Shown: one piece after another, positions 26,981-64,000 of the stretch
How positions within the stretch are numbered: the first letter of the stretch is position 1
Layout: the number at the start of each line of letters is the position of its first letter
Assembly (NCBI GenBank): GCA_029262675.1
Contig: JAJCYW010000010.1
Location: 129,166 to 193,165, forward strand
Direction of reading: 5' to 3'
Source of the DNA: Chloroflexota bacterium
Lineage (GTDB): Bacteria > Chloroflexota > Dehalococcoidia > DSTF01 > RBG-16-68-14
DNA: 64,000 bases
Notes under the pieces: generated by a model
Database searches by the model: none
Seen by the model: the letters and a program-made list of their open reading frames with translations, nothing else
Told to the model about the DNA's origin: nothing
Position numbers and translations under genes: made by a program

Positions 26981-27205
26981 CAGGCCACCGGAGGCGGCCC
27001 GCCCGCTGACGGATGCCGCCAACACAGCGCGCCCGCTGCTGGAGTATGCGGCGGAGGCTGGTGAAGTAGCAGGCCACCGGAGGCGGCCCGCCCGCTGACG
27101 GATGCCGCCAACACAGCGCGCCCGCTGTGGAGCATGCGACGTCGGCTGGTGAAGTAGAAGGCGGGCGGAGGCGGCCCGCGCGCTAGCGGATGCCGCTGTC
27201 GTACT
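26940..27205. repeat. ~89-bp direct tandem repeat, ~2.7-3 copies, duplicating the 3' ends of two convergent genes
   Basis: Unit gc(t)gtggag(t/c)atgcg(t/g)cggaggctggtgaagtagcaggccaccggaggcggcccgcccgctgacggatgccgccaacacagcgcgccc begins near 26947, 27037 and 27124. The third copy is diverged and carries the genuine stop of the minus-strand gene (ctagcggatgccg). Confidence 0.8.
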
Positions 27206-43989: not shown

Positions 43990-44688
43990 CTACGGCGCGG
44001 CGTGGGCGCCGACGTTGCCGTCCGCGTCGTCGTACAGGCGCTCCGCCCGGACGACGACCCGATCGTCGTACTGGCCGACGCTGGGGTCAAACGACCCGCC
44101 GCAGGTGATTAGCGTGATGATCTCGTTTGGTGTTCTGCCGACGATCTCCTGGATCGGCGCGTCGCTCGCCTTGTACTGGTCTCTGCGGAAAACGCCGTAC
44201 TCGTACACCGTTCCGTCCTGTAGCCGGACCTCTATGACGTCTCCCGGCTCCAGGTCCTTCAGGTTCCAGAATACGGCCGCGCCGTAGTTGTAGTAGTCCA
44301 CGTGGCCTGAAAACACGGCGTTGCTGCCGAACCCGGGCCGGGAGCTGAAGTCGTACCAGGCGACGTTGAGCGGGCCATCCGGCGTCTCCATGACGCCGTT
44401 GTCATCGACGCTCAGCACGACGATCGGCGCGTCGACGCCGAAGCGCGGAATCGCCAGTCCGGCTATCTGCGCCTCGCTCGGCGGCGGGGCCTCCGCCGTC
44501 GGAGTCGGCTGCGGCGTCAGTATGCGGTCAAGGCTCGTGTCAAAAGTGGTTGCCGTTTCCGGGCCAGCGTAGCCTTCATCTCCGGTCAGTTGGAAGACGA
44601 AGAGAACGGCCGCCGCTATCAACGACAGCACGCCCGCACCCATGACGATCAGGGAGAGCCGGTTCCAGTTTGCGCTATCTATCTTCAT
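43990..44688 (-). CDS. Sortase-family transpeptidase (class undetermined)
   Basis: N-terminal TM anchor; catalytic His (FSGHVDYY), TLITCGG Cys motif, downstream conserved Arg (VVVRAERL). Confidence 0.75.
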   Translation of the reverse strand: MKIDSANWNRLSLIVMGAGVLSLIAAAVLFVFQLTGDEGYAGPETATTFDTSLDRILTPQPTPTAEAPPPSEAQIAGLAIPRFGVDAPIVVLSVDDNGVMETPDGPLNVAWYDFSSRPGFGSNAVFSGHVDYYNYGAAVFWNLKDLEPGDVIEVRLQDGTVYEYGVFRRDQYKASDAPIQEIVGRTPNEIITLITCGGSFDPSVGQYDDRVVVRAERLYDDADGNVGAHAAP

Positions 44689-44861
44689 ATTGATCTACTA
44701 TTCTCCTACGTCCAGTATGTACTATATCGGCCATGAACGCACCGTACTCTAGATCACGCAATATTCGCTACGCTGTTCGGTGCTGCCACGCCATTCCACT
44801 TCGAATGTGCATATGCGTCTATACTGAGTTATCTTAGCAGCGGCCAAATGGGCGAGCAAGA

Positions 44862-45989: not shown

Positions 45990-46023
45990 GGGTTGTTTCT
46001 AGCTGGTCGCCGCGCACGAGAGA

Positions 46024-46050
46024 AGAGGCGCCGGGTTTTCCGGCGCCTCT
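46024..46050. terminator. Hairpin AGAGGCGCCGG-gtttt-CCGGCGCCTCT between convergent genes
   Basis: 11-bp GC-rich stem read directly, between the TolB-like stop (45989) and gene A stop (46080). Confidence 0.5.
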
Positions 46051-46079
46051 TGACGTTGCGTATGCGTGCCTGGCCGCGG

Positions 46080-48941: not shown

Positions 48942-49361
48942 CTGCGGACCTTCCTTCTCTGCCCCACCCCAACTGTTGCCCGCATCGGCAGGGGAGCCGT
49001 GTCCGGCAGTTCCCTACATACGAGACGGCGGCCGGGCGCGTCAGCCACCCCCACCCGGTCTCTGCGGCGAACGCGTTGGCCCGGCGATTCCCTCGCCGGC
49101 CGGCCCGACAGTCTTACTATAGTCCTACTATCGGCATGCTGCATCGCGGGCCAATTACTCAGCCGATTCGTACCCGCAGCTTCCGGTTAGTTTACCATAC
49201 GGATTATCGTATCCCTAGGGTGTTAAATCCCTTAGGCGTGGTCCTCAAAACCCTTAGAATCTAGAGGAATCCCCCTAGTTCCGTAGCTTGCGGGAACCGC
49301 TAGGCCTGCGCGGCAGCCTCCCCGGCGGGATCCGGGCGCGGGGCGGGCTCCCTACGCCATC

Positions 49362-50366
49362 TCAGCGGCAGATGAAGAGGTTCGCCTCTATTTGAAGGAT
49401 CAGCAGCGCGTCGATCGGCCCGGTGCGGCCATCGCCGTTCAGGTCGTCGCTGAACGGAACGAAGTCGATGACGCCCGTCGTCAGCCAGAGCACCCAGAGG
49501 GCGTCCTGGCTGTTGACCAGGCCGTTGCCGTCGATATCGCCGCAGGGCCGCGGCCGAGGCGTAGCGGTTGCGGGATCGAGCGTCGGCGTCGCGGTCACGG
49601 CCGGCGTCGGCGTTGGCGTCGTAGTCGGGGTCGGCGTTGCCGTGGGCGTAGGGGTGGGCGTCAGCGTGGGGCCGCCGGGCGTAATCGTCGGCAGCGGGGT
49701 GGGCGTCGGCGGCTCGCCGCAGATGATCGTGATGTTCGTCAGCTTGGGGATAGTGTCAACTTGAGAGTCGTTGACAAAGATCGTAATCTGTGATCCGCTG
49801 GTTCCCTGAGACGTGTTCGGAGGAATGACGCCATCATACGGCAACTGCACGACATCGCTGATGGTGTCCGTGCTGGAGCAGGTCATGCTGATGTGCACGA
49901 AGTCCCCGGCGAATGTGCTGATCGGCTGCGGCGGAAGTAATCCTGAGAGGCAGCCGTGGCCCACGTTGTAGATTGGCTGACCTGGCCCCGCCAGGTTGTC
50001 GAACTCCGGCCGCTGGGCGGTTTGCCCTACACAGTCCGGCCACACGATCTCATCGGCAGCTAGGCCGGTTCTGTTGTACGTCAGGTGTTCGCCGTAGCGG
50101 ACGAACGACTGCACGGCTACATACCCGCTGCTCGGGGCAGTGACGATCTTCACGGCCAGCGTGAACGTCTCGTCGAGCTCTAGCTGGCAGGTGCCCTCGC
50201 AGTCGCCGTCGGCCGCGATCACCGTGAGCGCCATCTCCGGGCCGCCGGACGTGGCGGACGTGGACGGCAGTTGGCCGCTGAGGAAGAGCGCGGCGGCGGC
50301 CAGCGCCACCACGGCAACGCCCGCGGCGGCGATGCGTCCGGCCCGTGGCCGCGATCGCGTGCTCAT
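49362..50366 (-). CDS. Secreted protein B: signal + N-domain + PT linker + dockerin
   Basis: SGGPEMALTV...GYVAVQSFVRYG...IVWPDC...HGCLSGLLPPQP...; TPTPTPTATPTPTTTPTPTP; dockerin CGDIDGNGLVNSQDALWVLW...DLNGDGRTGPIDALLILQ. Confidence 0.7.
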   Translation of the reverse strand: MSTRSRPRAGRIAAAGVAVVALAAAALFLSGQLPSTSATSGGPEMALTVIAADGDCEGTCQLELDETFTLAVKIVTAPSSGYVAVQSFVRYGEHLTYNRTGLAADEIVWPDCVGQTAQRPEFDNLAGPGQPIYNVGHGCLSGLLPPQPISTFAGDFVHISMTCSSTDTISDVVQLPYDGVIPPNTSQGTSGSQITIFVNDSQVDTIPKLTNITIICGEPPTPTPLPTITPGGPTLTPTPTPTATPTPTTTPTPTPAVTATPTLDPATATPRPRPCGDIDGNGLVNSQDALWVLWLTTGVIDFVPFSDDLNGDGRTGPIDALLILQIEANLFICR

Positions 50367-50565
50367 CTGGTGGCGGCTCCTGAATCGGCTGCTAGTCGAG
50401 TCATCCGAATTGCAGTATATCGCGTGCGTGCCGGTTGAGTCGTCATCCGCCGCTGACAGGAGAAGGGCTCGCTAGCGGCGGATGCAGTAAGGGCGTCCCG
50501 ACCATGTCGGGACGCCCCCCTGTTTAGTGCTCGTTGTTGCGTCTACGTACCTTCCTGAGCGCCCG

Positions 50566-51534
50566 TTACGCGGGTGGCACGCAGAAATCGCTGCCGTTGC
50601 CGGCCACGATCTGGAGGATCAACGCGGCGTCGATCGAGTTGACGACTCGGTCGCCGTCGATATCTCCGATCAGATCGAGAAGGCTGTCCTGGTTGTTGTC
50701 CTTGAGCGGTAGCAACGCCTCGACGAGCCCGGCGTCGAACCACAGCACCCAGAGCGCGTCCAGCGTGCTGATTTCACCATCGCGGTTGACGTCGCCGCAG
50801 ACAAAGTCCGGAACCGGCGTCGCTGTCGGCGGTACCGGCGTGTCCGTCGCCGGAGCCGGCGTGTCTGTCGGGCCAGGCGTGGCTGTCGGGCCGGATGTCG
50901 TCGGCGTGGCCTCGACAGGCGCCGTCGTTGGCGTTTCTGGCGGCGCGCCCGCACCGCAGGTGATGGAGAGGGTGCTCACCTTGGCGGGTATGACTTCGGC
51001 TCCGGCGGAGAAACCGGTGCCGCTGGTACCGGCGACAGGGTCGCCTGCCGGCAGCAGCGCTACGTCCGTCGTACTGGGGCCCGCGGAGCACGTGATTGAT
51101 ACCTCTGCGAAGCTGCCGGTGGCGGTGCTGAGCGGCAGCGGCGGAATCAGGCCAGTGAGGCAGCCGTGGTTGACGGTGGTCGGCCCGCCCGGCTGGTCGT
51201 GCAAGGCCACCGCGTCGGTGCAGTCCGGCCAGAGGATTTCGTCAGCAGCGGCCACCGCTGCGAGGTCGTAGGACAGGTCGCTGCCGAAGTCGATGAACGA
51301 CTGGGCGCCGACGTAGCCGCCTGCCAGCCCCTCGATGATCTCGACCGTGAGCGTAAACTTCGCGCTGTTATCGAACGTGCAGTCTGCGGCGCAGCCTTCG
51401 GCCGTCAGCCGCATCTCCGGGCCGCTACTGGCGGCCGAGGTGGTCTGAATCTGGTCGGCGAGGAAGAATGCCGTCGCCACGAGGGCGAGCACAGCCGCCA
51501 GCCCGAAGCCCAGATATGTTCTCTTTAGTTGCAT
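50566..51534 (-). CDS. Secreted protein C: signal + N-domain + PT linker + dockerin
   Basis: ATG 51534 (MQLKRTYLGF...) with AAGGAGG 7 nt upstream. SSGPEMRLTA...GYVGAQSFIDFG...ILWPDC...HGCLTGLIPPLP; dockerin CGDVNRDGEISTLDALWVLW...DIDGDRVVNSIDAALILQ. Confidence 0.7.
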   Translation of the reverse strand: MQLKRTYLGFGLAAVLALVATAFFLADQIQTTSAASSGPEMRLTAEGCAADCTFDNSAKFTLTVEIIEGLAGGYVGAQSFIDFGSDLSYDLAAVAAADEILWPDCTDAVALHDQPGGPTTVNHGCLTGLIPPLPLSTATGSFAEVSITCSAGPSTTDVALLPAGDPVAGTSGTGFSAGAEVIPAKVSTLSITCGAGAPPETPTTAPVEATPTTSGPTATPGPTDTPAPATDTPVPPTATPVPDFVCGDVNRDGEISTLDALWVLWFDAGLVEALLPLKDNNQDSLLDLIGDIDGDRVVNSIDAALILQIVAGNGSDFCVPPA

Positions 51535-51570
51535 CGTGTAACCTCCTTGCATATCTCGCTTCGAGACGCG

Positions 51571-52362
51571 CTACTGTACGCGGCGGCCTGCGATTACGCG
51601 CAGGCCGAACGTGGAGAGCCCCGTCGCGCTGATCGCCAGCAGAGCTGCGATTACTGCCCACATGCCTGTTCCGAACCCGCTGTCGCCGGTGGCGCTGAAT
51701 GTACCCGTGTCCGGCAGACCAGTCGGACCAGTCGGCCCGGGCGGTGGCGCCTCGCCACAGTTGACGATTACGGAGTCCGTCTTGGTCGGCACGTCTACTT
51801 GTGTATCGCCCTCATAGAAGGCGAACGCGGCGCCGCTGGTCCGGCCGGCGGATAGCGGCATCAGGCGCACGGCCGTGTGCGAGTAGGTGTCTGAGCACTC
51901 CAGGTCGATTTCAAGCAGCGTGCCCGTGTAGCTGCTCTCAGGGAGCGGCGGGAGCAGGCCCGTGAGGCCGCCATGGGTGATCTCGCCTGCCCCTACATCG
52001 CCTCTGATGATTACATCTTCGGATACTGCGTCGGGCCACAGGAACTCATCCGCCGGTTCCGGCCGCGCGACGTAAGTCAGGTCCAGGCCGTAGTCGATGA
52101 ACGTTTGTACCAGAACGTAGCCCTCGATCGGCGCCGTGACGACGTCGACCGTGACCGTTATCTCGCCGCCCAGATCCACGTCACACTCGCCGCCGCTGCA
52201 ATCGACGCCGGGGCCGGATACGCTGATGGCCATCTCCGGACCGATGCCGGCAGCGCTCGCGGTGGGTGCGGCGGTCTGGCCCCATGCCAGCACCAGCATC
52301 GCCATGAGCGGGATACCCAACAGCGCGGTGCTGCGTAGCCCTAATCGTTTCCGCACTTCCAT
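51571..52362 (-). CDS. Surface protein D: signal + N-domain + C-terminal LPDTG sortase sorting signal, no dockerin
   Basis: ATG 52362 (MEVRKRLGL...) with GGAAGGGAG RBS. GIGPEMAISV...GYVLVQTFIDYG...FLWPDA...HGGLTGLLPPLP. C-terminus GLPDTGTFSATGDSGFGTGMWAVIAALLAISATGLSTFGLRVIAGRRVQ. Confidence 0.7.
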   Translation of the reverse strand: MEVRKRLGLRSTALLGIPLMAMLVLAWGQTAAPTASAAGIGPEMAISVSGPGVDCSGGECDVDLGGEITVTVDVVTAPIEGYVLVQTFIDYGLDLTYVARPEPADEFLWPDAVSEDVIIRGDVGAGEITHGGLTGLLPPLPESSYTGTLLEIDLECSDTYSHTAVRLMPLSAGRTSGAAFAFYEGDTQVDVPTKTDSVIVNCGEAPPPGPTGPTGLPDTGTFSATGDSGFGTGMWAVIAALLAISATGLSTFGLRVIAGRRVQ

Positions 52363-52705
52363 GTTAGCTCCCTTCCTTCTACTCTTCCCTAAGTCTCGCG
52401 GCGTCCCTGGCCGGCGCACCCCTAAGCGGGGCCGCTTCGGCTGCGATCCGAAAGGTCGTGTGGCCCCCGCCACATCTTCCCCATAAGCACTGCCCCATGC
52501 CCAAACGTACCGGCGGAAGGGGCAGTAGCTGCGCCTAGCCTAGCGTATCCGGGGAGTTAATACTAGCCCCTCCGCGCAAGCCGGCCAGACGCTTCCACGT
52601 GGCTTCGGCATTATCATACTCGATTCGCGCAACTGCGCAAGGTGCGATTCTGGCTTACATGTCCGTGCTCTCATCTGTCGCACCAATGCGTCTCATTGAT
52701 GACGG

Positions 52706-52740
52706 CCGGAGAGCCGCCCTCGATTGGCGGCTCTCCCCGG
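52706..52740. terminator. Hairpin CCGGAGAGCCGCC-ctcgatt-GGCGGCTCTCCCCGG 3' of gene E
   Basis: Read directly, 24 nt downstream of the E stop on the minus strand. No clear U-run. Confidence 0.35.
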
Positions 52741-52763
52741 CGTTTCAGATAGATCTCCGGGTG

Positions 52764-53549
52764 TTAATTCACGCACGGCACCTGATACTGCGTGATGGCG
52801 CCCAGGATGTCAAGGAGAAGGTCGATTGCGCCGTCGTCGTTGATGTCGAAGGCCGGATCGTACGGCGGGGCTCCACTAGGAGCGTAGTGCTGAATGATGC
52901 CCAGGATGTCGTTCAGCAGGTCGACGATGCCGTCTCCGTTTGTATCGGCGCAGCCCATGAACAGGAGGGTTGATGACAGGACGCTTACTCCAGGGATCTG
53001 CCCGATGTCATCGGGGTCCGCCGGCGTGTTGATCAGGTACGAACCAGTCAGGTCCAGCGCGGTTCCCGGACCCATGATCGAGCCCGGATCGAGCGTCAGC
53101 TTCGCCAGGAGGCCGGTGCCTTGCACGCCGAAGGGAGGCACGTGGTCGATGGTAACGCAGTCCACGAAGACGTGGTTGGCCTCTATCGTCGGTGAAGGAC
53201 AGGATGGGCTTCGGCCGGATCCGGCAAGCCACGTGGTGTACGGCACCCAGGTTACGGCCGTCGCCAGCGAATCGTCGAATGCGATGTCGACGCGGAAGCC
53301 GGAGGCGCCTCCGGGCTCCTTCACGCTGACGGCCCAGACATAGATGTCTCGGTCAATGCCATCCGGGGAGACGACGATAGAGGACGCGCGGACGGGACTT
53401 ACGTCGGAGTAGCTCAACAAGATCTGCGTGGTCCCCGCACTTTCCGCGGGGTTGCTATCTTGAGCGATCCCCACTGTGGCGAAGACGAGCGCTCCAACCA
53501 GCAATCCGATCTTCGCGAATCCTCGCAATGGCTTTGTCAGTCGGTTCAC
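52764..53549 (-). CDS. Secreted adaptor-like protein E: signal + cohesin-like module + dockerin
   Basis: GTG 53549 (VNRLTKPLRGFAKIGLLVGALVFATV...) with AGGAGG 7 nt upstream. Cohesin-like hallmarks GASGFRVDIAFDDSLATAVTW and GTGLLAKLTLDPG. Dockerin CADTNGDGIVDLLNDILGII...DINDDGAIDLLLDILGAI. Confidence 0.6.
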   Translation of the reverse strand: MNRLTKPLRGFAKIGLLVGALVFATVGIAQDSNPAESAGTTQILLSYSDVSPVRASSIVVSPDGIDRDIYVWAVSVKEPGGASGFRVDIAFDDSLATAVTWVPYTTWLAGSGRSPSCPSPTIEANHVFVDCVTIDHVPPFGVQGTGLLAKLTLDPGSIMGPGTALDLTGSYLINTPADPDDIGQIPGVSVLSSTLLFMGCADTNGDGIVDLLNDILGIIQHYAPSGAPPYDPAFDINDDGAIDLLLDILGAITQYQVPCVN

Positions 53550-53607
53550 GGCTTGTACCTCCTGCTTCCGAATGCGTTGCATACGGGAACTGGCTCCCCC
53601 CGAAGCT

Positions 53608-54549
53608 CTATGATTCTCCCCTGTGCATGATGCGCCGCCGCAAGAAGCCTGCCGCCAGTCCCGCTGCCGTGAGGCCGCCAAGGCCAACGAGGATCCAGAG
53701 TGTGACAGCGCCGTTTGCGTTCCCGTCGTCATCGGGGGCGCTGATGCTCGGTGTAGGTGTGCCGATTTCAGAAACGGCCGTGTCTGTCGCTGTCGGCGTG
53801 CCATCCGCCGCGGGAGTCGTCGGCGCCGGCGAGGCGCCCGCAGTCGGCGACTGCACGGTTGCCGGTTCGATTGTTGTCGTGGCGTTCGTTCCTGGCGTGT
53901 CTGTTGCGACCTGCGGCGAAGACGTAGCCGTGGGCGGTGCGTTTCCGGTCACGCGGACCAGGCCGCCGACGACGTCCAGTGGTACCGGGTCTCCCAGCGG
54001 ACCCGAGAGTTGAGACGTCAGCAACAGCGGGCTGGAGCCCGCGCCCAGCGGCGTGAACGTCACGCTGGCAAGCGTGAGTTCGCCCTGCAGCCCCGGGATC
54101 GAATCGCTGGAAGACAGGCAGCCGAAGCGGACGCTGCCCGGCTCTACGCGCGGTGGCAGGCATTGGAACGGGCGGCTACTGGCTGCCAGCCCCGGGCCGG
54201 GCTCGAGGTGGTCCACAGCGACGACGGTCTCATCGAATTCGATGATGAACTCGAACGCGGCCATGCCGATCGATTCAACTTCGCGGTCCGGAACGGTATC
54301 GCGGTTGTCGTCGTAGAAGATCGCCCCGTGGTGGTCCAGGTCCTCCAGGACGATGAAGACGCCAAACGCACCGCTGTCCGCGTCGACGCTGGAGATGGCC
54401 GGCAGCAGCCGGACCGTTCCGTCTGCGGACTGCGCGCTGGTGGACTTAACTGCGATCGTCATAGCAATCAGCATAAGCGATGCCAGAAGCATCCAGATCA
54501 AGAGCGTGCGAGGCCGCGCGCGAGGCATCAGCGGGGCGGTCCGACCCAA
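53608..54549 (-). CDS. Membrane-anchored cohesin-like protein F: signal + cohesin-like module + PT linker + C-terminal TM anchor
   Basis: TTG 54549 with GGGAGGAAAC RBS. Cohesin hallmarks GMAAFEFIIEFDETVVAV and GLQGELTLASVTFTPLGAGSSPL. C-terminus TLWILVGLGGLTAAGLAAGFLRRRIMHRGES; no LPXTG. Confidence 0.6.
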   Translation of the reverse strand: MGRTAPLMPRARPRTLLIWMLLASLMLIAMTIAVKSTSAQSADGTVRLLPAISSVDADSGAFGVFIVLEDLDHHGAIFYDDNRDTVPDREVESIGMAAFEFIIEFDETVVAVDHLEPGPGLAASSRPFQCLPPRVEPGSVRFGCLSSSDSIPGLQGELTLASVTFTPLGAGSSPLLLTSQLSGPLGDPVPLDVVGGLVRVTGNAPPTATSSPQVATDTPGTNATTTIEPATVQSPTAGASPAPTTPAADGTPTATDTAVSEIGTPTPSISAPDDDGNANGAVTLWILVGLGGLTAAGLAAGFLRRRIMHRGES

Positions 54550-54734
54550 ACGTTTCCTCCCATCTACGAAAACGATGCGGACGTGGCGAATGTAACGCCC
54601 GTGCTCCTCTTTCTAGCATGTTCCGGCCCCTGTGCAATGCCATTTCCCGCAGTCATTGCTGCGGATCTTCAGCCCTACCCCCAATTCGGCGTAGGACTCA
54701 AGGCCCAAAGCATCTGTAATCTGCGAATAGATAA

Positions 54735-54777
54735 GGGCGGGGAAGCCGGAACTATGAGTCCGGTGCTCCCCCGCCCC
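54735..54777. terminator. GC-rich hairpin GGGCGGGGAAGCCGGA...TCCGGTGCTCCCCCGCCCC 3' of gene G
   Basis: Read directly, ~90 nt downstream of the G stop on the minus strand; followed on that strand by TTATCTATT. Confidence 0.4.
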
Positions 54778-54868
54778 ATCTTGGTCACTCCGTGACCTGC
54801 TGTATTCGCTTCTTTCCCCGCAACCGCTCTAGCTGGCTACGGAAAGAACTTGATGATCTAAAACCCCC

Positions 54869-56329
54869 TTAGGCCTTCGGGTTCACCGGCGGCTGCGGCG
54901 GGTGCGGCACTGCGCATGTGCTTCCGAAGCGGCCAAAGACGAACTGCAGGTCGTTGATGTCGATGTCGGCATCTGACTGCGTTCCGGAGGGCTCCAGGTT
55001 CATGAAGTCCTTGTAGATCAGGCTACCCTTCTCAACGCCCCAACGGAACGAGATCGCCTGCGCGTCTAGCGCGTCGACCGAACAGTCGGGCTCCACGTCA
55101 CCTTCGAGGTAGCGGAACGTAATGTCCGCGTCGTCGCAGGCGAAGATCGGGATCGCCTCACCTTGCTCGTCACCCAGGTCACAGTTCACGTTGTTGATCT
55201 GGACGACGTTACCGTTTTCCTGGTTGGGCTTCATCGGAGAGTAGATCTCCGGCTGCGGATAGACATCGACGGTGGCCAGCGAGGCCAGGTTGTCGATGCG
55301 GTCTACTTCAGCCGCCTTACCCACGGTGACACAACCAATGCGGGCAACGCCCTCAAGCTGCGGCTTGCTAGCCGAGTCTTGGATGATGCAGATCGCACCC
55401 GCGGCCTGCCAGTCGGCGCCCGTGGTCAGGTCAACACAGACCTTCTTGTTGTCGTAGAGAACCTCGAACTCAAAGGCCGCGAGTACCTGGAATCCGGTCA
55501 CGCCCTTCGGGTCCGGGGAGACAACCGCCTGGCTCAGCTCTTCGCTGAGGCTACCGATGTTCGTGCCAGAGAGGCAGTCTACCGGCGGAACCTTTGAACC
55601 CTGTCGCGTCAGGAAGACGTTCTGCAGGGCCGGGATCTTGGACATTCGCGGCACCGGCGGCGGCGTGTTCGTCGGCGTCGATGTCGGAGTCGGCGTGAAT
55701 GTCGGAGTCGGCGTTGCTGTGTTCGCGTTCGTGCAGTGTACGGTTACCGAACTGCCAGGAACGGCGATGTTGCCAGTTACAGCGTCAGCAAATGCCGCGC
55801 CGCTGGTACCGGCGTTCGGGCCGCCGAGCGTCTCCAGATCAATCTGGTGGCCCTGGGACTTGCCCGTTGTGCAGGTAAAGTCGAACTGGAACAGCGCACC
55901 CTTGATAACGCTGATTGGCGGACTGATCAGTCCGGTCAGACAACCACGGCCAACGGTTGTGGCCGTCAGTGTTCCAAGGTCTGCCGCGGCGCAGTCTCCC
56001 CATATGGTGGAGGAGCCCGTTGCCGTCAGACCAGTGGCGCCAAAGAACAGGAAGGCCTGCGCACCGACGTAACCGTTCGTAATCGGAACGGCGTCACCGC
56101 TGACGGTGACGCTAAAGGCGCTACCAATTGGGACACAAACGTCGCCCGGGGCCTTTGCGCCGGGGCAGGTCTGGCCGCCGGAGACGGCCATGCTCATGGC
56201 AGCGCCGTCTGTGGCTGCCTCTGCAGTGTCGGTGCTGTGGCCCATGCTGAACACCATGACCGCTAGCGCGATCGCCAGAAGCGGCAGGCTCAGCAAGCCC
56301 AGTACCTTAATTCGTTGTGTTCTATTCAC
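54869..56329 (-). CDS. Secreted protein G: signal + N-domain + PT linker + cohesin-like module + divergent (class-2) dockerin-like module
   Basis: GTG 56329 (MNRTQRIKVLGLL...) with AGGAGG 8 nt upstream. N-domain TDGAAMSMAVSGG...GYVGAQAFLFFG...GCLTGLISPP. Cohesin-like GVTGFQVLAAFEFEVLYDNKKVCV...ARIGCVTVG. C-terminal DVEPDCSVDALDAQAISFRWGV...DADIDINDLQFVFGRFGSTC. Confidence 0.65.
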   Translation of the reverse strand: MNRTQRIKVLGLLSLPLLAIALAVMVFSMGHSTDTAEAATDGAAMSMAVSGGQTCPGAKAPGDVCVPIGSAFSVTVSGDAVPITNGYVGAQAFLFFGATGLTATGSSTIWGDCAAADLGTLTATTVGRGCLTGLISPPISVIKGALFQFDFTCTTGKSQGHQIDLETLGGPNAGTSGAAFADAVTGNIAVPGSSVTVHCTNANTATPTPTFTPTPTSTPTNTPPPVPRMSKIPALQNVFLTRQGSKVPPVDCLSGTNIGSLSEELSQAVVSPDPKGVTGFQVLAAFEFEVLYDNKKVCVDLTTGADWQAAGAICIIQDSASKPQLEGVARIGCVTVGKAAEVDRIDNLASLATVDVYPQPEIYSPMKPNQENGNVVQINNVNCDLGDEQGEAIPIFACDDADITFRYLEGDVEPDCSVDALDAQAISFRWGVEKGSLIYKDFMNLEPSGTQSDADIDINDLQFVFGRFGSTCAVPHPPQPPVNPKA

Positions 56330-56701
56330 GAAGTTGACCTCCTACCGAGAGTAGATAATATCTAGGTTACTCTGTGGTTTGCTTGTTCTGGTGTAGTACA
56401 TCCCCTCCTTTCTCGGCCCTACACGGGGTAGGAGCCAAATACAGCGGTGTAACCAAATTGGCAACCAACCGGGCGGGGGTCGGTGATTGGCATGTAATAC
56501 CGCTTGCGCGGCGGACTATGGCGGGGAACCTGTGGAATCTTCTTCCACCAGCTGATACTTGTATATCACGGTGTCCCAGCTTTGTCAAGCGTTCCGAGCG
56601 TACCTAATTTCGATCCTCTGCAGAACCGGTTGGAGCGACACCTGACGTATGGAGCGGTGCATTCCCGGCATCATGACAACGACAACGCGCGAGACTCGCG
56701 A

Positions 56702-58900
56702 TCATAACAACAGCGAGCAGTCCTGCCCGTGGTGCTGAATGACCGGCAGGACGTCGAAGAGCAGGCTGACCGTGCCGTCACCGTCGATATCGTAGAGCAC
56801 GTCGAATCCGGGATCTCCCGTTACCTCGCCGTGGTGTTGCACGACCGTCAGGATGTCGAAGAGCAGGTCGACCACGAGGTCGCCGGTAACGTCGAAGCAG
56901 GCCTTCAGGTCTGTTGTTTCGGAGGCGTCGTTGCCTACTGGGTTCTCATCCGGGTCCGAGGCAGACGCCGTGACGTTGTTCGTAATCGTTTGGTCCACCA
57001 TCAGTGTTGGCGCGCGCACATCCAGCGTGATGATCACCTGGCTGCTTACGAGGACCTCGTCGATGGTGCACTCGACCGTATCGACCGGTACCGCGACGCA
57101 AACGGCTCCCGTCGCGCCGACAAAGGTGGCCGGACGGTTGAACTTGGCGAAGTTGAAGACGGTAGCCGTCGGCAACGTGTCCGTCACGACCACGTCCAGC
57201 GCGTCGCCGAGCCCGATGTTGTCGACCGTGATCGTGTAGCTGTAGTAGCCGAGTCGCAGCACCGGATCGGCCAAATCCACCTTGGTTACGACGAGGTCCG
57301 GCGGCGGCGCCACAACCGGCGTGTACGCGATAGCCGAGTTGTTGCCGGAGTGGACAAAGAGCTCGTTGTCGGCCGAAACGACCGCAGTGTTCTTCATCAT
57401 CAGGCTCTGCGTCACCACCGGAGAGAGCATCACGATCTCGACGAATGCATCGCTGCCCGCCGGAATGTTCCCCAGGCTGCAGGTGACGACCCCGGCGACT
57501 GGCGCGCCGCAGCCGGGGCTTGCCGACACGAAGGCACCGTCCAACGGAAGCGTGTCCACAATGACGACGTTTTCTGCCTCTTGCGGACCGCTGTTTGCGG
57601 CCGTCAGCGTGTACGTGACGTTCTCGTTGCCGTTCACGAATGACGGATCGCCCACTTTGGTCAGATCCACGTCTGACCGTGGTGCGAGGACTACCGTCTC
57701 TTCGATATCCGTATTATTACCGGTGTTCGCAAAAGGCTCGTTGCTCGCGCTTACAGTGACCGTGTTCGAGACCAGCGTGTCCAATATGGGCGATGGCGCC
57801 GTCACGGTGATATCGATGACTACCTGGTCGGACGGGTTCATCGGGTTGGTGACCGTGCAGATCACGACGCCTAGATTCTCGCCGCAGTTGGCGCCCGCGG
57901 AGACCGCGGACACAAACGACGAACCGGGCGGTAACGCGTCGGACATCGTAACGTCCTCGGCCGTTTGCAGGCCCACGCTATCGATGGTGACGCGGTACGT
58001 GAAAGTGGCCGTCGCGTCGACGGGGTCCGTCAGGTCGACCTTCGTCACCTTGACGTCAGGCCGCTCGCTCGGCGGCGGCAGCGGCGTCGGGGTGTCGGTC
58101 GGCGTCGGCGAGACCGTCGGCGTGTGTGTAGCCGGAATCGGCGTCACCGTCGGTGTCGGCGTCGGGCCCAGGCAGTGGACGACGAGATCTGAAAGCTTCG
58201 GAATGACTGTTGTTGTCCCATCCTGGAACGCGGTGCCGCTGGTGCCCGCCAACGGGTCGTTTTCCGGCAGGAGCTGGACATTGGTGGTGGAAGAAGACGA
58301 GGAGCACGTGAATGATAGCTCCAAGATGGTGCCGATGAAGAAGCTCACCGGCTGCGGGGGGATTAGGCCCGTGAGTCCGCCGTGGGATACGACGTGCGGC
58401 GCGACTTGGGCCTTGAATACCACCGAAGGGTCTAGGTCTGGCCAGACCATCTCGTCGGCCGCGGCCTGGGAGTTGTAGGTGAGGTTGGTCGTGACGCAAT
58501 CGGTGTCGAAGCGGTCGGCGCCATCGCCGCCGCCGTTGTCGATTGTGTCACTGCAGGTATTGAGACCGGCGCCGTCTTCGCTCGCGGCGGGATCGTAGAT
58601 GCCGTAATCGATGAACGTCTGCACCGCAATGTACCCCGGCACTGGCGTATCGATGACATTAGCCGTCAGCGTGAAGGTGTCGCCTGCCGTGACGCAGTCG
58701 TCGTTCGGGTCATAGCCGCCCGGGCATGCTGTGCCGCCCGTAGTAACCGCCATAGAGATCTCCGGTCCGGTGCTGGCGGCCTCTGCGCGCTGCTCGCCGC
58801 CGCTATCCCAGACCAGGAAGACCGCGACGGCGATGAGCGCGATGATTGGCAGCACCAAGAGCCGTGTTGCCATCCTTGGACTAATGTTGCCGATCTTCAT
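56702..58900 (-). CDS. Secreted protein H: signal + N-domain + 3 DUF11-like conserved repeat domains + dockerin
   Basis: ATG 58900 with GGAGGAGG RBS. N-domain STGPEISMAV...GYIAVQTFIDYG...MVWPDL...HGGLTGLIPPQP. Three ~120-aa repeats (DVKVTKVDLTDPVDATATFTYRVTI.., DVDLTKVGDPSF..VTYTLTAANSGPQEAENVVIVDTLP.., DLVVTKVDLADPV..YSYTITVDNIGLGDALDVVVTDTLP). Dockerin CFDVTGDLVVDLLFDILTVV...DIDGDGTVSLLFDVLPVI. Confidence 0.7.
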   Translation of the reverse strand: MKIGNISPRMATRLLVLPIIALIAVAVFLVWDSGGEQRAEAASTGPEISMAVTTGGTACPGGYDPNDDCVTAGDTFTLTANVIDTPVPGYIAVQTFIDYGIYDPAASEDGAGLNTCSDTIDNGGGDGADRFDTDCVTTNLTYNSQAAADEMVWPDLDPSVVFKAQVAPHVVSHGGLTGLIPPQPVSFFIGTILELSFTCSSSSSTTNVQLLPENDPLAGTSGTAFQDGTTTVIPKLSDLVVHCLGPTPTPTVTPIPATHTPTVSPTPTDTPTPLPPPSERPDVKVTKVDLTDPVDATATFTYRVTIDSVGLQTAEDVTMSDALPPGSSFVSAVSAGANCGENLGVVICTVTNPMNPSDQVVIDITVTAPSPILDTLVSNTVTVSASNEPFANTGNNTDIEETVVLAPRSDVDLTKVGDPSFVNGNENVTYTLTAANSGPQEAENVVIVDTLPLDGAFVSASPGCGAPVAGVVTCSLGNIPAGSDAFVEIVMLSPVVTQSLMMKNTAVVSADNELFVHSGNNSAIAYTPVVAPPPDLVVTKVDLADPVLRLGYYSYTITVDNIGLGDALDVVVTDTLPTATVFNFAKFNRPATFVGATGAVCVAVPVDTVECTIDEVLVSSQVIITLDVRAPTLMVDQTITNNVTASASDPDENPVGNDASETTDLKACFDVTGDLVVDLLFDILTVVQHHGEVTGDPGFDVLYDIDGDGTVSLLFDVLPVIQHHGQDCSLLL

Positions 58901-58956
58901 GTTGTAGCCTCCTCCGGAAAACCACTACATCTTCATAAACGTTTGCCGGTTGCGTA

Positions 58957-60720
58957 TCATACCGGTGGCTGATCGAGTACTCCTGCTTCCAACTGCAAGA
59001 TGACGGTCGCGTCGATGCTGTTGACTGTTCCGTTCTCATCCACGTCGGCGTTCTCCGCGCAGGCCACGTTGGCCAGCAGTCCGGCGTGATACTGCAACAC
59101 CAATGTAGCATCGATGCTGTTCGTTTGGCCGTCGCAGTTCACGTCACCGCTAGCCGGACGGCTGGTGAGCGCGTCCGAACATGAGGCGGCCACGACGTCG
59201 TCGCCGGTCATCAACCCGAGTGACGACGCGGCCAGGGCAACGGTCGGGGGCGTACGCGCGACGCCGGCGGGCGTCGCGGGCCACAGCAAGTCGCCGGGGC
59301 CGGCGCCGATCGCAGCCAGCGTCGGCGATCCGGCCGTCAGTGAAAAGACAACGTGGTCTTCTGTGGCGCGATACGTTCCGTCGCCGCTCTCATGCAGGCA
59401 GAGGGCGTCAATGTCGTCTCCGGGCAGTAGGCCCAGCGCTCCGGCCGTAGCGTACGCCGCGGGTGGCGCGCCCGCCGACGTGACCAGCACATCTGCTGCC
59501 AAGACGCCGTACGCCGGGAGCGACGGGGACGCGCCGTCGAGCGAAAAGTACACGCTCCGCTCCGGGACGCCGTCGTGGTTGGCATCGACAACGTCCGCGT
59601 GCGGCTGCGTTAGCGCGTTGAGGTTGGGGCGAGCGCTGATCGACTCGACAAGGCCGAGCGGGAACGCGGCTGCGCAGGCGCCGATCGGTCCGTTGCCGTC
59701 CAGCGTGAGCTGGTTCGTTCCGTCGCCGGTGGACGAGAACACGTCCGATTCGGCCTCGGGCGAGAGCCCCGGCTCGGCCGGGGGGCAGGCGCGCTGCTCG
59801 GCGACCGCCGTGCCCGGCATTCCGTCTGCCGTGGGGCCGACCGAGAAGTAGCTGACGTTGGCGGCCAGGTCGTTACCGAACGACAGGGCGTCGATGTCGT
59901 CCCGCGGGGCGCCTTCTGCTCCGCAGCCGGTGAGCCCCAGGCCGGGGCAGGCGATGCGAACAAACGGGGCTTGGCCTGCGCCCGTCGTGGCTGCGAGCGG
60001 CGTCAGCGCTAGCACACTCGCGGGGGGTAGGCCGTCCGCGTTGCCGCGCTCGACGGAGTACGCGGGTAACAGCGGAGCGACTGCGATAGTGAGGCTATTG
60101 ATGCACAGTTCGAGGTCGGTATGCGTGTTCGCCTCGTTTACCAGCGCGATGCAGTGTTCTGGCGTGCCTGCTGCTGGCGCTGGCCACTGGTACGTGAGAC
60201 CGAGCGGCGGCCACGCCGCAAGGAAGGCCTGTTGGCCGGACGCTGCGGGCGTCAGGTGGATGGGCGTCTCGTTGTGGATCTGAAGCGGGCCGATTACGGT
60301 GCTCGGCAGTTCAAGATCGAGAGATAGCTCGAAGAAGCTGGACGCCGGAAACGGGATGCCGGGCTGCGTGCTGCGGATCTCGCCCGTCGAGTGGTAGGAC
60401 GCGCCCTGGTCGGGCCGCTCCGTGACATCCACCAGACCGAGACGGCTTGCTCCTCGTAGCTCTAGGTTGACGATCGCTAGCTCCTGAACCAGGGTTCCGC
60501 CGTCGTCGCGCGGATCCGACCGCTCTACCTCAATCCATCCAGGGAGGATCGCCGTGTCGCCGCCCAGAAGGCTCGTCACTTCCGCGATCGCGACTACCGG
60601 TAGCGTGTCCGTTCCAGGTGGGTACGTAGGCATCCCGGCCCTCGTTAACTGCGTCGCATTCATCATCACCAAGCCGAAGAAGAGTAACGCGCCTGTCAGC
60701 CCTAATCCGACGAAACGCAT
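58957..60720 (-). CDS. Secreted protein I: signal + unrecognised ~480-aa N-terminal region with internal repeats + canonical dockerin
   Basis: ATG 60720 with GAGGAG RBS. Internal repeats (GAPRDDIDALSFG / LPGDDIDALCLHESGDG / MTGDDVVAASCSD). Dockerin SGDVNCDGQTNSIDATLVLQYHAGLL...DVDENGTVNSIDATVILQ. Confidence 0.65.
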   Translation of the reverse strand: MRFVGLGLTGALLFFGLVMMNATQLTRAGMPTYPPGTDTLPVVAIAEVTSLLGGDTAILPGWIEVERSDPRDDGGTLVQELAIVNLELRGASRLGLVDVTERPDQGASYHSTGEIRSTQPGIPFPASSFFELSLDLELPSTVIGPLQIHNETPIHLTPAASGQQAFLAAWPPLGLTYQWPAPAAGTPEHCIALVNEANTHTDLELCINSLTIAVAPLLPAYSVERGNADGLPPASVLALTPLAATTGAGQAPFVRIACPGLGLTGCGAEGAPRDDIDALSFGNDLAANVSYFSVGPTADGMPGTAVAEQRACPPAEPGLSPEAESDVFSSTGDGTNQLTLDGNGPIGACAAAFPLGLVESISARPNLNALTQPHADVVDANHDGVPERSVYFSLDGASPSLPAYGVLAADVLVTSAGAPPAAYATAGALGLLPGDDIDALCLHESGDGTYRATEDHVVFSLTAGSPTLAAIGAGPGDLLWPATPAGVARTPPTVALAASSLGLMTGDDVVAASCSDALTSRPASGDVNCDGQTNSIDATLVLQYHAGLLANVACAENADVDENGTVNSIDATVILQLEAGVLDQPPV

Positions 60721-60860
60721 CTTCTCCTCATTAACACGCAGCGCTTGCGCACGCAGCGCATATCTCCCGGCATGCGGGGCAAGCGGCTTGGAGGCGGGGA
60801 TGTCCGGCTAGTATACGTCTCTCGCGCCCACGCTGGCAACCGGCAGACGCGGGAGGACGC

Positions 60861-63800
60861 CTATCGCGGGCCATCTGTGTCCTCTTGACGACGCGACGGC
60901 GCAGGCCTGAAGCGCGGCTGGAACGGTGCCGGCGTCACGCCCTGCCGTCTGCGCCACCACAGCAGTTGCGACCAGGCGAGCAGCACCGCGCCGCCCGCTA
61001 ATCCAGCGATCGCGAGCGTGGTTGGCAGTACGTCGCCCGATGACCCGTCAGCCCCTCCCGTATCGGGGAGACCTGCGACCGGAGTCTTTAGGATAGGCCC
61101 ACTGTCGCGGACCAGTGTTGGTGTTGAGGTTGGCACAGGCGCCTGGATGGGCGTGGCCGATCCCGTGGGTGATGCGGGCGTTGCGGTGCTGGGCGGCGCC
61201 CCGGGGGCCGGCGTGTCCGTCGGCGGGATGAATGCGGGCGTTGCGGTGCTGGGCGGCGCACCGGGGGCCGGCGTGTCCGTCGGCGGGATGGCGGGAACTG
61301 GTGTGGCGGTGTTTGCGGGTGCCGGCGTCGATGTGGGCGGCACAGCGGGCGTCCCGAATGTCGGTAGCGGGATCACCGTCGCCGTTGGTGGTGGCGGAGT
61401 CGTCGGTGTGGGCGTTGGAATCGCCGCTATCGCCGGTGTCCACGTCGGCTCGGCGGTCCACGTCGGTACTGGTGTCCAAGTCGGCTCCTGCGTCCACGTT
61501 GGCTGGGGCGTCCAGGTGTGCGTCGCTGTCGGCGAGGCGTCAGACGTTGGCACAGGCGTACCAGAGCCGTCAGGCGTCGCGGAGGGTTCTGGAGTCGTAC
61601 TCGGTGCCGGCGTGTCTGTAGCTGTAAGAGCCGGCGTGGCTGTCGCCGTCGATGTTACCGTTGGGTCCGGCGTCGGCGAGCCGGCCCCGGCGCCTCCCGG
61701 CGTGGCAGTTGCCGTCGCTGTCGCTGCGGCCGTCGCTGTCGCTGGCGCAGTCGTTACCGTCGCGGTTGGTTGCGGCGAAGGTGATGCGGTCGGAGTGCTT
61801 GACGGCGTTTCGCCGGTCGGCCCAGGGGTCGCGGTAGCCTCGGGCGTGACGCTCGGCGTTGGGGTTTCCGTTGACTTGGATGGCGGATCCTGTATGCCCC
61901 ACGGTTGCGCACAGGTGCTGCCCGTGCGGCCGTAGACTGTCTGCAGGTCGCTGATGTCGATGTCGCCGTCCGGCCGGATGGCTGGCTCGAGATCGTACCT
62001 CTCCTGATATAGGGTAGAGCCTTCGGAAACGCCGAAGCGTCCGGCTACCATTTGGTGATCGATGACGTTGACGGCGCAGTCGACGTTGATGTCGGACTCC
62101 AGCGCGCGAACGATGACCTTGGCGTCGCCGACGAACGAAACCGGAATGCCGTCCTCCAGCGCGCCGACGAGTCTGGTGTTCGCCGTGACGTCATCCAGAA
62201 TCACTTCTATCCCGTTATTTGGCGCCGGCCGAATCGGAATCCTCGCCAGCGGTGTTACCGTGATCCTGGCGAAAGCGAACGTGCCGCTCGGGCCGGGGTC
62301 GACGCCGGTCGTCACGCAGCCGAAGCGCACCGCTCCCTCCGTCCTGTTCTCCAGACATGTCGCCGTTCGGTCTGTGCCTTCCAACTCCTGGAGGAACGGC
62401 GAGGCGTCGATATCGAGCGATACGGTGTTGTTGTCGTAGGCCACGTGCAGCTCAAAACCACCGAGGCCGGATCCCTCCGGAACGTTCTGCGCCCGTTCGT
62501 ACAGCACAAGCGAGCCATTGCCCAAGAATAGGTTGGATTCCGCCGGCTCCTTGATCACACTGACGATATCCTGTTCCGATTGAACGCCCGCCGGCCCCGT
62601 GACGCCTGGATACGCGACTGACTTGTGGGCCGTAATCGCCACCGTCCGCAGCGTCGTGGTGAGCGAGCTGCTGTTGAGGCTCGGTATGCCTGGCGTTGCT
62701 GTTGGAGTCACCGTCGGTGTCGGGGTGGGCGTAGCGACAGGTGTCGGAGTCGCCGGCGGGATGACGATGACGACGCCGTCCTGCGTCACGATAGGTAGCT
62801 GGGCCGCGCCTGGGACGTCGACGATAATCGGGCCTGAGAGATGGAGCGGTGACAGTCCTTCGGCGAGGGCGAAGAATGTGGCCGTGGCGATCACGCCTGA
62901 ACCGTTGGCGCCAGGCGGCGTGGTGCCGATGGTGTTGCAGGAGAACTCGACGTCGCTAACGCCTACGATGGGCGGCAAGCAGACGACGTTGCGTCCCGTA
63001 CTGCCGAGAAAGGGGCCGACGACGAGCGACTGGGACAAGATCACAGACGGGCTGTAGCTGAGCATGAACTGGAACGCGCCGAGGTCGGCTACGTTATCGA
63101 CAACAATGTCCGCCGTGACGATGGTACCGACTGGCGCGTTCTGGCTGACCGGATCTATGCGTATGGTGACTGGCCCAGCGGGCGTCGTTGACGTTGGCGT
63201 AGGTGTGAACGTCGCTGTCGGCGGCGGGATCGGCGTGTCGGTGGGGGTTGGGGTGATCGTCGGCGTTGGTGTCACCGTCGGCGTCGGGCAGATGCCGCCC
63301 GGGCACGGGGTTGGTGTCACCGTCGGCGTCGGGCTGAGCGTGGCAGTTGGCGAGAGCGTCGGCGTCGGCGTCGCCCCCTCGACGACCGTGATCTCGCCGA
63401 CTCCGAGTGCCGCCGTCGGGTAGGCGAGTCCAGGGACGTCTGTGAAAATGACGTCCTCAAACGTCAGCAAGCTGATGCCGGCAGCCTCTCCCCGCAGCGT
63501 GATGAATGCTAACACGCCGGTGCCTGTTGGCCCCGCCGGTGTTGGTTCAATCGACACGCAGGTGTACTGGATGAAACCCGGCCCGGCGGTGGGCACTAGG
63601 CACGTGACGATGCGTGATGTGCTGGAGAGGAACGGCCCGGGTGATACGCTGGGCGCGGAAACGACGAGCGGATCATACCGAAGCGTGAACTGGAAGGCGC
63701 CCAGCTCCGGCGCGTTTGCCACAGCGACCTCAAGGATCGTTTCGCTGCTCAGATTCACAGTCTGGCTCTGCGGCTGCGGGCAGAGGATGAAGACGACCGC

Positions 63801-63995
63801 CGCGCCGCACGTGATCGGCGTTGGTGTAGCCGTGGGCGTTGACGTTGGCCCGCCAGGCGTCGGCGTTGAGGTCGGTGTCAATGTCGGGCATGTAGTCGTG
63901 CCCAAGACGGTCGCGGTGCCATTGTGCAGCGAGCGCGGGATCGGCGTGCCGAGCGTATCGGCGATGTCTGCGTTTGCCAGGATCAGCGTGCTCAC
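60861..63995 (-). CDS. Scaffoldin-like surface protein J (N-terminus beyond window end): >=3 cohesin-like modules + class-2 dockerin-like module + long PT-rich region + LPDTG sortase signal
   Basis: Three cohesin hallmarks (LGAFQFTLRYDPLVVSA..GVLAFITLRGEAAGISLLTF; LGAFQFMLSYSPSVILS..GVIATATFFALAEGLSPLHL; LGGFELHVAYDNNTVSL..GTFAFARITVTP) separated by PTPT linkers. DINVDCAVNVIDHQMVAGRFGV...DGDIDISDLQTVYGRTGSTC. C-terminus GLPDTGGADGSSGDVLPTTLAIAGLAGGAVLLAWSQLLWWRRRQG. ORF still open at 63995. Confidence 0.65.
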   Translation of the reverse strand: MSTLILANADIADTLGTPIPRSLHNGTATVLGTTTCPTLTPTSTPTPGGPTSTPTATPTPITCGAAVVFILCPQPQSQTVNLSSETILEVAVANAPELGAFQFTLRYDPLVVSAPSVSPGPFLSSTSRIVTCLVPTAGPGFIQYTCVSIEPTPAGPTGTGVLAFITLRGEAAGISLLTFEDVIFTDVPGLAYPTAALGVGEITVVEGATPTPTLSPTATLSPTPTVTPTPCPGGICPTPTVTPTPTITPTPTDTPIPPPTATFTPTPTSTTPAGPVTIRIDPVSQNAPVGTIVTADIVVDNVADLGAFQFMLSYSPSVILSQSLVVGPFLGSTGRNVVCLPPIVGVSDVEFSCNTIGTTPPGANGSGVIATATFFALAEGLSPLHLSGPIIVDVPGAAQLPIVTQDGVVIVIPPATPTPVATPTPTPTVTPTATPGIPSLNSSSLTTTLRTVAITAHKSVAYPGVTGPAGVQSEQDIVSVIKEPAESNLFLGNGSLVLYERAQNVPEGSGLGGFELHVAYDNNTVSLDIDASPFLQELEGTDRTATCLENRTEGAVRFGCVTTGVDPGPSGTFAFARITVTPLARIPIRPAPNNGIEVILDDVTANTRLVGALEDGIPVSFVGDAKVIVRALESDINVDCAVNVIDHQMVAGRFGVSEGSTLYQERYDLEPAIRPDGDIDISDLQTVYGRTGSTCAQPWGIQDPPSKSTETPTPSVTPEATATPGPTGETPSSTPTASPSPQPTATVTTAPATATAAATATATATPGGAGAGSPTPDPTVTSTATATPALTATDTPAPSTTPEPSATPDGSGTPVPTSDASPTATHTWTPQPTWTQEPTWTPVPTWTAEPTWTPAIAAIPTPTPTTPPPPTATVIPLPTFGTPAVPPTSTPAPANTATPVPAIPPTDTPAPGAPPSTATPAFIPPTDTPAPGAPPSTATPASPTGSATPIQAPVPTSTPTLVRDSGPILKTPVAGLPDTGGADGSSGDVLPTTLAIAGLAGGAVLLAWSQLLWWRRRQGVTPAPFQPRFRPAPSRRQEDTDGPR

Positions 63996-64000
63996 GCCGC

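Follow-up and report, generated by a model that had tools for sequence, protein, structure and literature searches.

A sortase-signal-bearing multi-cohesin protein in a Chloroflexota bacterium: probable scaffold of a non-cellulosomal cohesin–dockerin surface assembly

Assemblies held together by cohesin–dockerin pairs are known in molecular detail almost only from the degradation of plant fibre or starch by Bacillota. The amylosome of Ruminococcus bromii is a cohesin–dockerin complex for non-cellulose use with a cell-bound scaffold (PMC12663171). In genomes of anaerobic methanotrophic archaea (ANME), scaffoldin-like proteins occur that combine a dockerin with as many as five cohesins, and the partners of these proteins are without cellulases (10.1101/2021.09.25.461819). 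For the Chloroflexota and Dehalococcoidia, our literature search found no paper describing such a system or family. Here we examine a 64,000-nucleotide (nt) stretch of a Chloroflexota bacterium of the class Dehalococcoidia (assembly GCA_029262675.1, contig JAJCYW010000010.1, positions 129,166 to 193,165; hereafter the window), at the edge of which lies a scaffoldin-like open reading frame (ORF; 60861..63998, minus strand). The ORF probably encodes the anchoring scaffold of a non-cellulosomal, multi-tier cohesin–dockerin surface assembly. It combines cohesins, a dockerin and a sortase signal, and it heads a cluster of dockerin and cohesin-fold genes that recurs in other metagenome contigs. Coordinates are those of the window, and features lie on the minus strand unless stated otherwise.

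Architecture of the scaffold protein

The ORF ends in a stop codon at 60861-60863 and encodes a 1045-amino-acid (aa) C-terminal fragment, numbered here from the window edge. An earlier note, written from the DNA letters alone, had described a scaffoldin-like giant protein truncated by the window edge and still open at 63995. The frame is indeed open through 63998, the last full codon in the window, and runs for 3138 nt without interruption, its first GTG in the ORF listing lying at 63995. All modules named in that note were found, namely three full cohesins with the remnant of a fourth (it had counted at least three, and relatives carry nine and eight), a dockerin, a proline/threonine-rich (Pro/Thr) stalk and an LPDTG motif.

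A scan of the GTDB genome collection returned one relative, in the Chloroflexota metagenome-assembled genome (MAG) contig JADFKB010000060.1 (L002), with 70% identity over the third cohesin (cohesin C) and the dockerin. The L002 scaffold gene is complete and encodes 2022 aa that comprise a signal peptide, nine cohesins, one dockerin, a Pro/Thr stalk and LPDTG, and the window fragment is colinear with its last ~1180 aa, module 8 of L002 being missing from the window. A metagenomic protein that is less closely related, P0006 (1837 aa, 48% identity), follows the plan of the window protein, with seven cohesins plus cohesin C making eight. The modules of both relatives were counted with profiles built in this analysis, the database record of P0006 listing Cohesin only. 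Further cohesins had been predicted upstream of the window edge, and this is where L002 and P0006 show a signal peptide and about five more of them. By comparison with these relatives, the window protein would measure ~1,850 aa, its part beyond the edge carrying a signal peptide and five cohesins, and the fragment would be its C-terminal ~55%. Its full architecture would then read signal peptide, seven Pro/Thr-linked cohesins, an eighth, divergent cohesin fused to the dockerin, a ~280-aa stalk, LPDTG, a helix and a basic tail.

The fragment opens with the C-terminal end of an upstream cohesin (aa 1-33, 63900..63998), which shares 70% identity with the end of L002 module 5. It is followed by a Cys-flanked Pro/Thr linker 1, assigned by composition (aa 34-63, 63810..63899), and by cohesin A (aa 64-207, 63378..63809), the ortholog of module 6 in L002 and P0006 with 80% identity to the former. 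Linker 2 (aa 208-274, 63177..63377) carries a CPGGIC motif and was delimited by sequence, composition and alignment to the ortholog; cohesin B (aa 275-416, 62751..63176), recognised by Pfam, is the ortholog of module 7 in both relatives. The next segment (aa 417-476, 62571..62750) comprises Pro/Thr linker 3 and a low-confidence, unstructured N-terminal extension of cohesin C, and at the equivalent site of L002 sits the extra cohesin. Finally, the divergent cohesin C (aa 477-632, 62103..62570), assigned to the cohesin fold by prediction, joins a dockerin of the class here termed 'gamma' (aa 633-697, 61908..62102) directly, without a linker.

The Pfam Cohesin family (PF00963) matches the whole fragment with 40.4 bits against a gathering cut-off of 24.1. 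Taken singly, cohesin B scores 27.5 bits and cohesin A 21.0 bits, and cohesin C alone gives no match to this family. Cohesin C and the dockerin were modelled with AlphaFold2 from a four-sequence alignment of the window protein and three metagenomic homologs, and in the cohesin part (residues 41-197) the predicted local distance difference test score (pLDDT) is 64-93, mostly 80-93. Against the Protein Data Bank (PDB), Foldseek placed cohesins at all of the best 50 matches to this model (best E 8.9e-8), the best structural match being 1g1k with a target-normalised template modelling score of 0.81, and the non-cellulosomal cohesin 2xdh was among the matches. Module C, the one module examined in this way, thus has the nine-stranded jelly-roll fold of solved cohesins by AlphaFold2 and Foldseek. 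Nine of nine aligned cohesin modules share two invariant cysteines, 14 residues apart.

The cohesins of the window protein, L002 and P0006 were compared all-against-all. Nearly every module finds its best match at the same ordinal position in another species (pairs 1-1 to 7-7 and C-C), identities being 54-63% for L002 against P0006 and 72-80% for the window protein against L002, whereas copies within one protein are only 39-59% identical. The sole exception is module 5 of L002, which by a narrow margin matches its own neighbour, module 4, best. As the best matches are positional and copies within a protein are less alike, each position has been kept distinct since the lineages split. We infer that the positions differ in binding specificity and that the modules are not interchangeable copies.

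The dockerin-like module of the earlier note is borne out by a family profile, though its score with Pfam Dockerin_1 stays under the cut-off. The profile, built from eight sequences of this dockerin family, matches solved dockerins over their full length (2y3n_B, E 4.7e-8; 5k39_B, E 2.3e-5) as well as the type II X-dockerin of CipA (2b59_B, E 5.2e-7; 3kcp_A, E 2e-6), the alignment spanning positions 6-69 of 73. The first calcium loop, DINVDCAVNVID, is canonical. The module begins and ends with conserved cysteines, which may form a disulfide clasp.

Downstream of the dockerin lies the stalk (aa 698-975, 61074..61907), delimited by composition and made up to 70-84% of Pro, Thr, Ala and Ser. The Pro/Thr/Ala-rich region reported earlier is therefore present, at 278 aa instead of the ~300 aa then estimated. 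The description of its coding DNA as highly repetitive was overstated: the DNA is of low complexity, with only one near-exact duplication, of 60 bp. Tandem Repeats Finder gave two copies of this 60-bp unit at 98% (61172..61290, encoding IPPTDTPAPGAPPSTATPA twice), 3.8 copies of an 18-bp unit at 72%, and short 6- and 18-bp runs. A degenerate 18-bp repeat at 61438..61514 encodes five TWTxxP units. The direct-repeat families in the scaffold DNA are 60-85% identical, and its Pro and Thr codon usage is mixed. The shadow ORFs listed in the note lie on the plus strand and correspond to the Gly/Val-rich antisense of Pro/Thr codons. The second of them, given as 62599-63423, is in reality two ORFs (62599-63057 and 63064-63423), and it faces linker 2, cohesin B and linker 3, not the long stalk.

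A further expectation about this region held. Length variation is seen between the window protein and L002, which differ by one cohesin and by whole TWTxxP and 20-aa units: TWTxxP occurs five times in the window and four times in L002, and the 20-aa IPPTDTPAPGAPPSTATPA unit is doubled in the window only. Apart from these in-frame insertions and deletions of whole repeat units, the two stalks are colinear. Short-read assemblies tend to end at the scaffold gene, two of them, made independently, breaking off at its 3' end. The Logan contig L001 (SRR15505513_496351), identical to window positions 56011-60930 at 4920/4920 nt, ends 70 nt inside the scaffold ORF, and the L002 contig stops 17 nt past the stop codon of the ortholog. 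The 4.9-kb Logan contig was also the only exact-protein match for the neighbouring gene.

At the C-terminus, the LPDTG cell-wall sorting signal was located as previously proposed, the motif (aa 977-981) lying at 61056-61070 together with a hydrophobic segment and basic residues. LPDTG, a 13-aa spacer, a 26-aa hydrophobic membrane segment (aa 990-1015, 60954..61031) and RRRQ follow one another in the order of an LPXTG-type signal, and the RRRQ stretch belongs to a 30-aa tail that runs to the stop codon (aa 1016-1045, 60861..60953). The motif is kept in L002 and P0006; its flanks differ.

A conserved cluster of dockerin and cohesin-fold genes

The main context of the ORF had been overlooked in the earlier note: the ORF heads a conserved gene cluster of dockerin and cohesin-fold proteins that ends in a sortase gene. 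The cluster (43990-60720) encodes eight secreted proteins with dockerins and/or cohesin-fold domains, one more LPDTG protein and the sortase. Seven dockerin genes adjoin the scaffold gene, which makes eight dockerins within 17 kb when the scaffold's own is counted, and these fall into three classes: type-I-like, Cys-flanked 'flexitail'-like and the cohesin-fused 'gamma' class. No enzyme domain was detected by Pfam or NCBIfam in the cluster proteins.

Directly downstream of the scaffold gene, w587 (named, like the others, with its length in aa; 58957..60720) encodes a secreted 587-aa protein with a ~520-aa region of unknown fold and a C-terminal type-I-like dockerin (Dockerin_1, 37.9 bits). A PDB sequence search with this protein matched its dockerin part only; the ~520-aa region has three repeats ending in a GDDIDAL-like motif and no known domain. 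The next protein, w732 (56702..58900), comprises a cohesin-fold N-domain, three DUF11/CLIPPER repeats and a flexitail-like dockerin. It is followed by w486 (54869..56329), in which a cohesin-fold N-domain precedes a pair of cohesin C and gamma dockerin like that of the scaffold, and by w313 (53608..54549), which has a signal peptide, one cohesin, a Pro/Thr region and a C-terminal membrane helix, and no LPXTG. In w346 (52764..53804), a cohesin-like module is combined with a flexitail-like dockerin (NCBIfam, 36.6 bits; cut-off 40), and w300 (51571..52473) joins a cohesin-fold N-domain to the second LPDTG sorting signal. The remaining members carry type-I-like dockerins, preceded by a modelled cohesin-fold N-domain in w328 (50566..51552), by one such domain in w334 (49362..50366) and by three in w953 (46080..48941). 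The cohesin fold of the N-domain shared by the partners is predicted from modelled structure. The sortase gene (43990..44688) scores 83.8 bits with Pfam Sortase, and its best NCBIfam match is class F.

From 43990 to the window edge all genes are on the minus strand except one, a gene with PD40 beta-propeller repeats (44862-45989, plus strand) between w953 and the sortase gene. Taken as their longest ORFs, w346 and w313 share ~200 nt; the true start of w346 is probably an internal ATG near 53582 (MQRIRKQ...), with a signal-peptide-like segment after it. The scaffold stop and the w587 start are separated by a 140-nt gap that holds a sigma-70-like promoter match (60810-60839, minus strand; TTGCCA, 18-nt spacer, TATACT, 10/12), with a GAGGAG ribosome-binding site before the ATG, and no terminator-like site was seen 3' of the scaffold gene. 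A further dockerin protein of 308 aa is encoded 16 kb outside the cluster (27183-28109, minus strand), with Dockerin_1 at 26.5 bits in mid-protein and a weak CarboxypepD_reg-like domain. Its position indicates that dockerin genes are scattered in this genome. Elsewhere the window consists of ordinary chromosomal genes such as gyrA and mnmA.

The gene order of the cluster is conserved in three other metagenome contigs (L003, L004 and L005). In all three, w587 is the immediate neighbour of the scaffold gene; on L003, which carries P0006, its ortholog directly downstream shares 50% identity. On L004 and L005 the order is scaffold, w587, w732, w486, w313, w346, w300 and w328, with 27-48% identity, and for the L004 gene at the w300 position no match to w300 was recorded. 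The head proteins of these two loci (L004, 4120-6945; L005, 919-3696) have four cohesins and a flexitail-like dockerin at the end, and are without cohesin C, gamma dockerin, stalk and LPDTG. Given these differing heads, the head gene is modular, its cohesin number (4 to 9) and attachment mode varying; judged from these sequences, a single conserved locus has exchanged one mode of scaffold attachment for another. Upstream of the scaffold gene, three relatives carry a Ni-superoxide dismutase gene and a NuoB-like Oxidored_q6 gene on the opposite strand (L002, 3873-5594; L003, 1774-4268; L004, 2106-3683), and L003 and L004, where gene calls existed, also have the S26 peptidase of Ni-superoxide dismutase. 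The same neighbourhood probably continues just past the edge of this window.

The wider family was surveyed with metagenomic clusters defined at 50% identity. A word-indexed homolog search of 5.8 billion sequences with a single 142-aa cohesin gave no significant match, the query being too short for that database; a longer query with an exhaustive search succeeded. The exhaustive HMMER search yielded 4133 cluster representatives at E<=1e-3, of which 1266 remained at E<=1e-10 and 153 at E<=1e-30. Of 155 family sequences analysed, 62 have at least three cohesins, 92 have a gamma dockerin and 28 have an LPxTG-like motif and a membrane helix at their end. Of 99 gamma dockerins, 92 directly adjoin a cohesin, with no linker in between, in a sample biased by the query, which contained both cohesin C and the dockerin. 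Those members that bear names are annotated as hypothetical or 'cohesin domain-containing' and come from MAGs of Dehalococcoidia or Chloroflexota, except for one from Planctomycetes, and by these matches the family is common in Chloroflexota/Dehalococcoidia metagenomes. In P0233, P0236 and P0238, cohesin relatives occur alongside a papain-like peptidase (PF00112), a dockerin and a chagasin-like inhibitor domain (PF09394), which hints that some Chloroflexota-type cohesin–dockerin systems display proteases.

A proposed surface assembly and its rivals

In the assembly that we favour, the scaffold would be secreted through the Sec pathway, after which the sortase of the cluster would cut at LPDTG and link it to the cell wall, with the extended stalk projecting the cohesin array away from the wall. 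Each cohesin would capture a particular dockerin-tagged protein; that each position is conserved between relatives suggests position-specific capture by modules that are not interchangeable. The partners, with their three dockerin classes and cohesin-fold domains of their own, would let the complex branch into a multi-tier network, and the scaffold's own dockerin might tie it to another cohesin, for which w313 with its membrane anchor, w300 with its wall-anchor signal and a neighbouring scaffold are candidates. As the cluster showed no catalytic domain, its most likely product is a structural or adhesive assembly and not a polysaccharide-degrading cellulosome.

Several observations weigh against this reading. 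For the scaffold dockerin, Pfam Dockerin_1 (PF00404) reaches 13.7 bits (E 0.076), under its cut-off of 22.9. The second calcium loop, DLEPAIRPDGDIDISD, is atypical in having a 4-6-residue insertion and, when read without it, has no acidic residues at loop positions 1 and 3. Further, the dockerin part of the AlphaFold2 model from the four-sequence alignment has a pLDDT below 40. In the partners, hhalign gave the shared N-domain a 4% probability against cohesins, leaving sequence homology unestablished. On the anchoring side, the curated models Gram_pos_anchor (PF00746) and TIGR01167 gave no match at E<=10 (Pfam) or E<=1 (NCBIfam), the 13-aa spacer and 30-aa tail of the sorting signal are atypical, and the sortase scores 114.8 bits with the class_F_sortase model, below the cut-off of 166. 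The upstream half of the gene was also unseen, as searches of metagenome contigs with the window edge (exact 81-nt and wobble-degenerate 41-nt) found no match for extension. Finally, dockerin-tagged enzymes could be encoded elsewhere, outside the visible 64 kb, and in some relatives dockerin and cohesin modules do share a protein with a papain-like peptidase domain.

A more far-reaching form of the proposal is an enzyme-free, self-assembling exoskeleton, in which a wall-anchored scaffold with position-specific cohesins would recruit partners that each unite a cohesin fold with a dockerin, in three specificity classes, and a branched, ordered lattice (an envelope layer, sheath or adhesive coat) would be held only by cohesin–dockerin pairs. 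We put this forward tentatively and hold it to be possible but on balance doubtful.

Among the rival explanations, a fibrillar LPXTG adhesin survives best. The cohesin-fold repeats would then be no more than a passive stalk, or would themselves bind ligands of a host or substrate, and dockerins would mediate no assembly. We regard this as unlikely: eight dockerins of three classes are found within 17 kb in conserved order, the scaffold bears a dockerin of its own, and cohesin conservation by position suits specific partners better than a generic stalk.

A true cellulosome-type scaffoldin, gathering polysaccharide-degrading enzymes that bear dockerins and whose genes lie elsewhere in the genome, appears more improbable still. 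It would account for the multi-cohesin plan, reminiscent of CipA or ScaB, and it can draw on the scattering of dockerin genes indicated by the protein at 27183-28109. Many enzyme genes of the known cellulosome producers lie apart from the scaffoldin gene. However, glycoside hydrolase, carbohydrate-binding and esterase domains occur in none of the ten dockerin- or cohesin-bearing proteins of the window, Pfam detects no carbohydrate-binding module (CBM) in the scaffold fragment, and the conserved neighbours at the three other loci are the same enzyme-free proteins. Further, a survey of cellulosome-displaying bacteria comprises Bacillota and one borderline member of the Planctomycetes–Verrucomicrobia–Chlamydiae (PVC) superphylum, its text leaving Chloroflexota unmentioned (PMC11557425). 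With no carbohydrate-active domain detected in the dockerin and cohesin proteins of the window, a cellulosome was rejected as the best explanation.

The weakest rival, an assembly artefact or decaying pseudogene with a collapsed or chimeric Pro/Thr region, would fit the low complexity of that region and the short-read contigs of two independent assemblies that break at the 3' end of the gene, but was rejected as highly improbable on the colinearity of the stalk with an independently assembled ortholog differing by in-frame whole-unit indels, the ORF unbroken over 3138 nt, the shared architecture of P0006 and the Logan contig identical to the window at 4920/4920 nt up to 60930.

Comparison with described cohesin–dockerin systems

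If the pairings hold, the locus would provide a natural set of several orthogonal cohesin–dockerin pairs for protein-assembly engineering, and a testable cell-surface model for uncultured Chloroflexota/Dehalococcoidia, whose envelope is poorly understood. Should the lattice form of the proposal be true, it would represent a new bacterial way of building a cell-surface layer, widespread in Chloroflexota/Dehalococcoidia. The family amounts to hundreds of 50%-identity metagenome clusters.

The cellulosome scaffold CipA of Clostridium (Acetivibrio) thermocellum resembles the present protein in its eight or nine Pro/Thr-linked cohesins and in a C-terminal dockerin that follows a tightly attached beta-sandwich module, and the dockerin profile matches the CipA X-dockerin. 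The cohesins of CipA are near-identical copies, whereas those described here are heterogeneous, conserved by position and each endowed with two invariant cysteines. Moreover, the present protein shows no CBM3 in its fragment, and carries its own LPDTG in place of reliance on anchor proteins bearing S-layer homology (SLH) domains.

The ScaB/ScaE system of Ruminococcus flavefaciens is similar in its many cohesins, its C-terminal unit of a module plus dockerin, its attachment by LPXTG and sortase, and its multi-tier assembly with the cohesin-plus-dockerin adaptor ScaC (PMC11557425 and general knowledge). In that species, however, scaffolding and anchoring fall to two proteins, ScaB and ScaE, which an X-dockerin and a cohesin link together, whereas here cohesins, dockerin and LPDTG share a single chain; a cohesin and not an X module precedes the dockerin; the cluster is without carbohydrate-active enzymes; and the host belongs to the Chloroflexota and not the Bacillota. 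The R. bromii amylosome differs similarly, as its dockerins are borne by amylases and no enzyme was detected in the present cluster.

The non-cellulosomal cohesin and dockerin proteins of archaea (Archaeoglobus fulgidus, ANME) are comparable in that their hosts are not known to degrade cellulose. The protein described here is bacterial and larger, with 8-9 cohesins, is by its signal sortase-anchored, and belongs to a conserved ten-gene cluster whose members themselves combine cohesin-fold domains with dockerins. Read from its predicted modules, the locus is unlike ScaB/ScaE, CipA and the archaeal systems in bringing cohesins, a dockerin and a sortase signal together on one chain, in an enzyme-free cluster of a Chloroflexota bacterium. 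With its 8-9-cohesin sortase-signal scaffold, cohesins distinct by position, three dockerin classes and enzyme-free cohesin-fold partners, it stands apart from the plant-fibre and starch assemblies of Bacillota.

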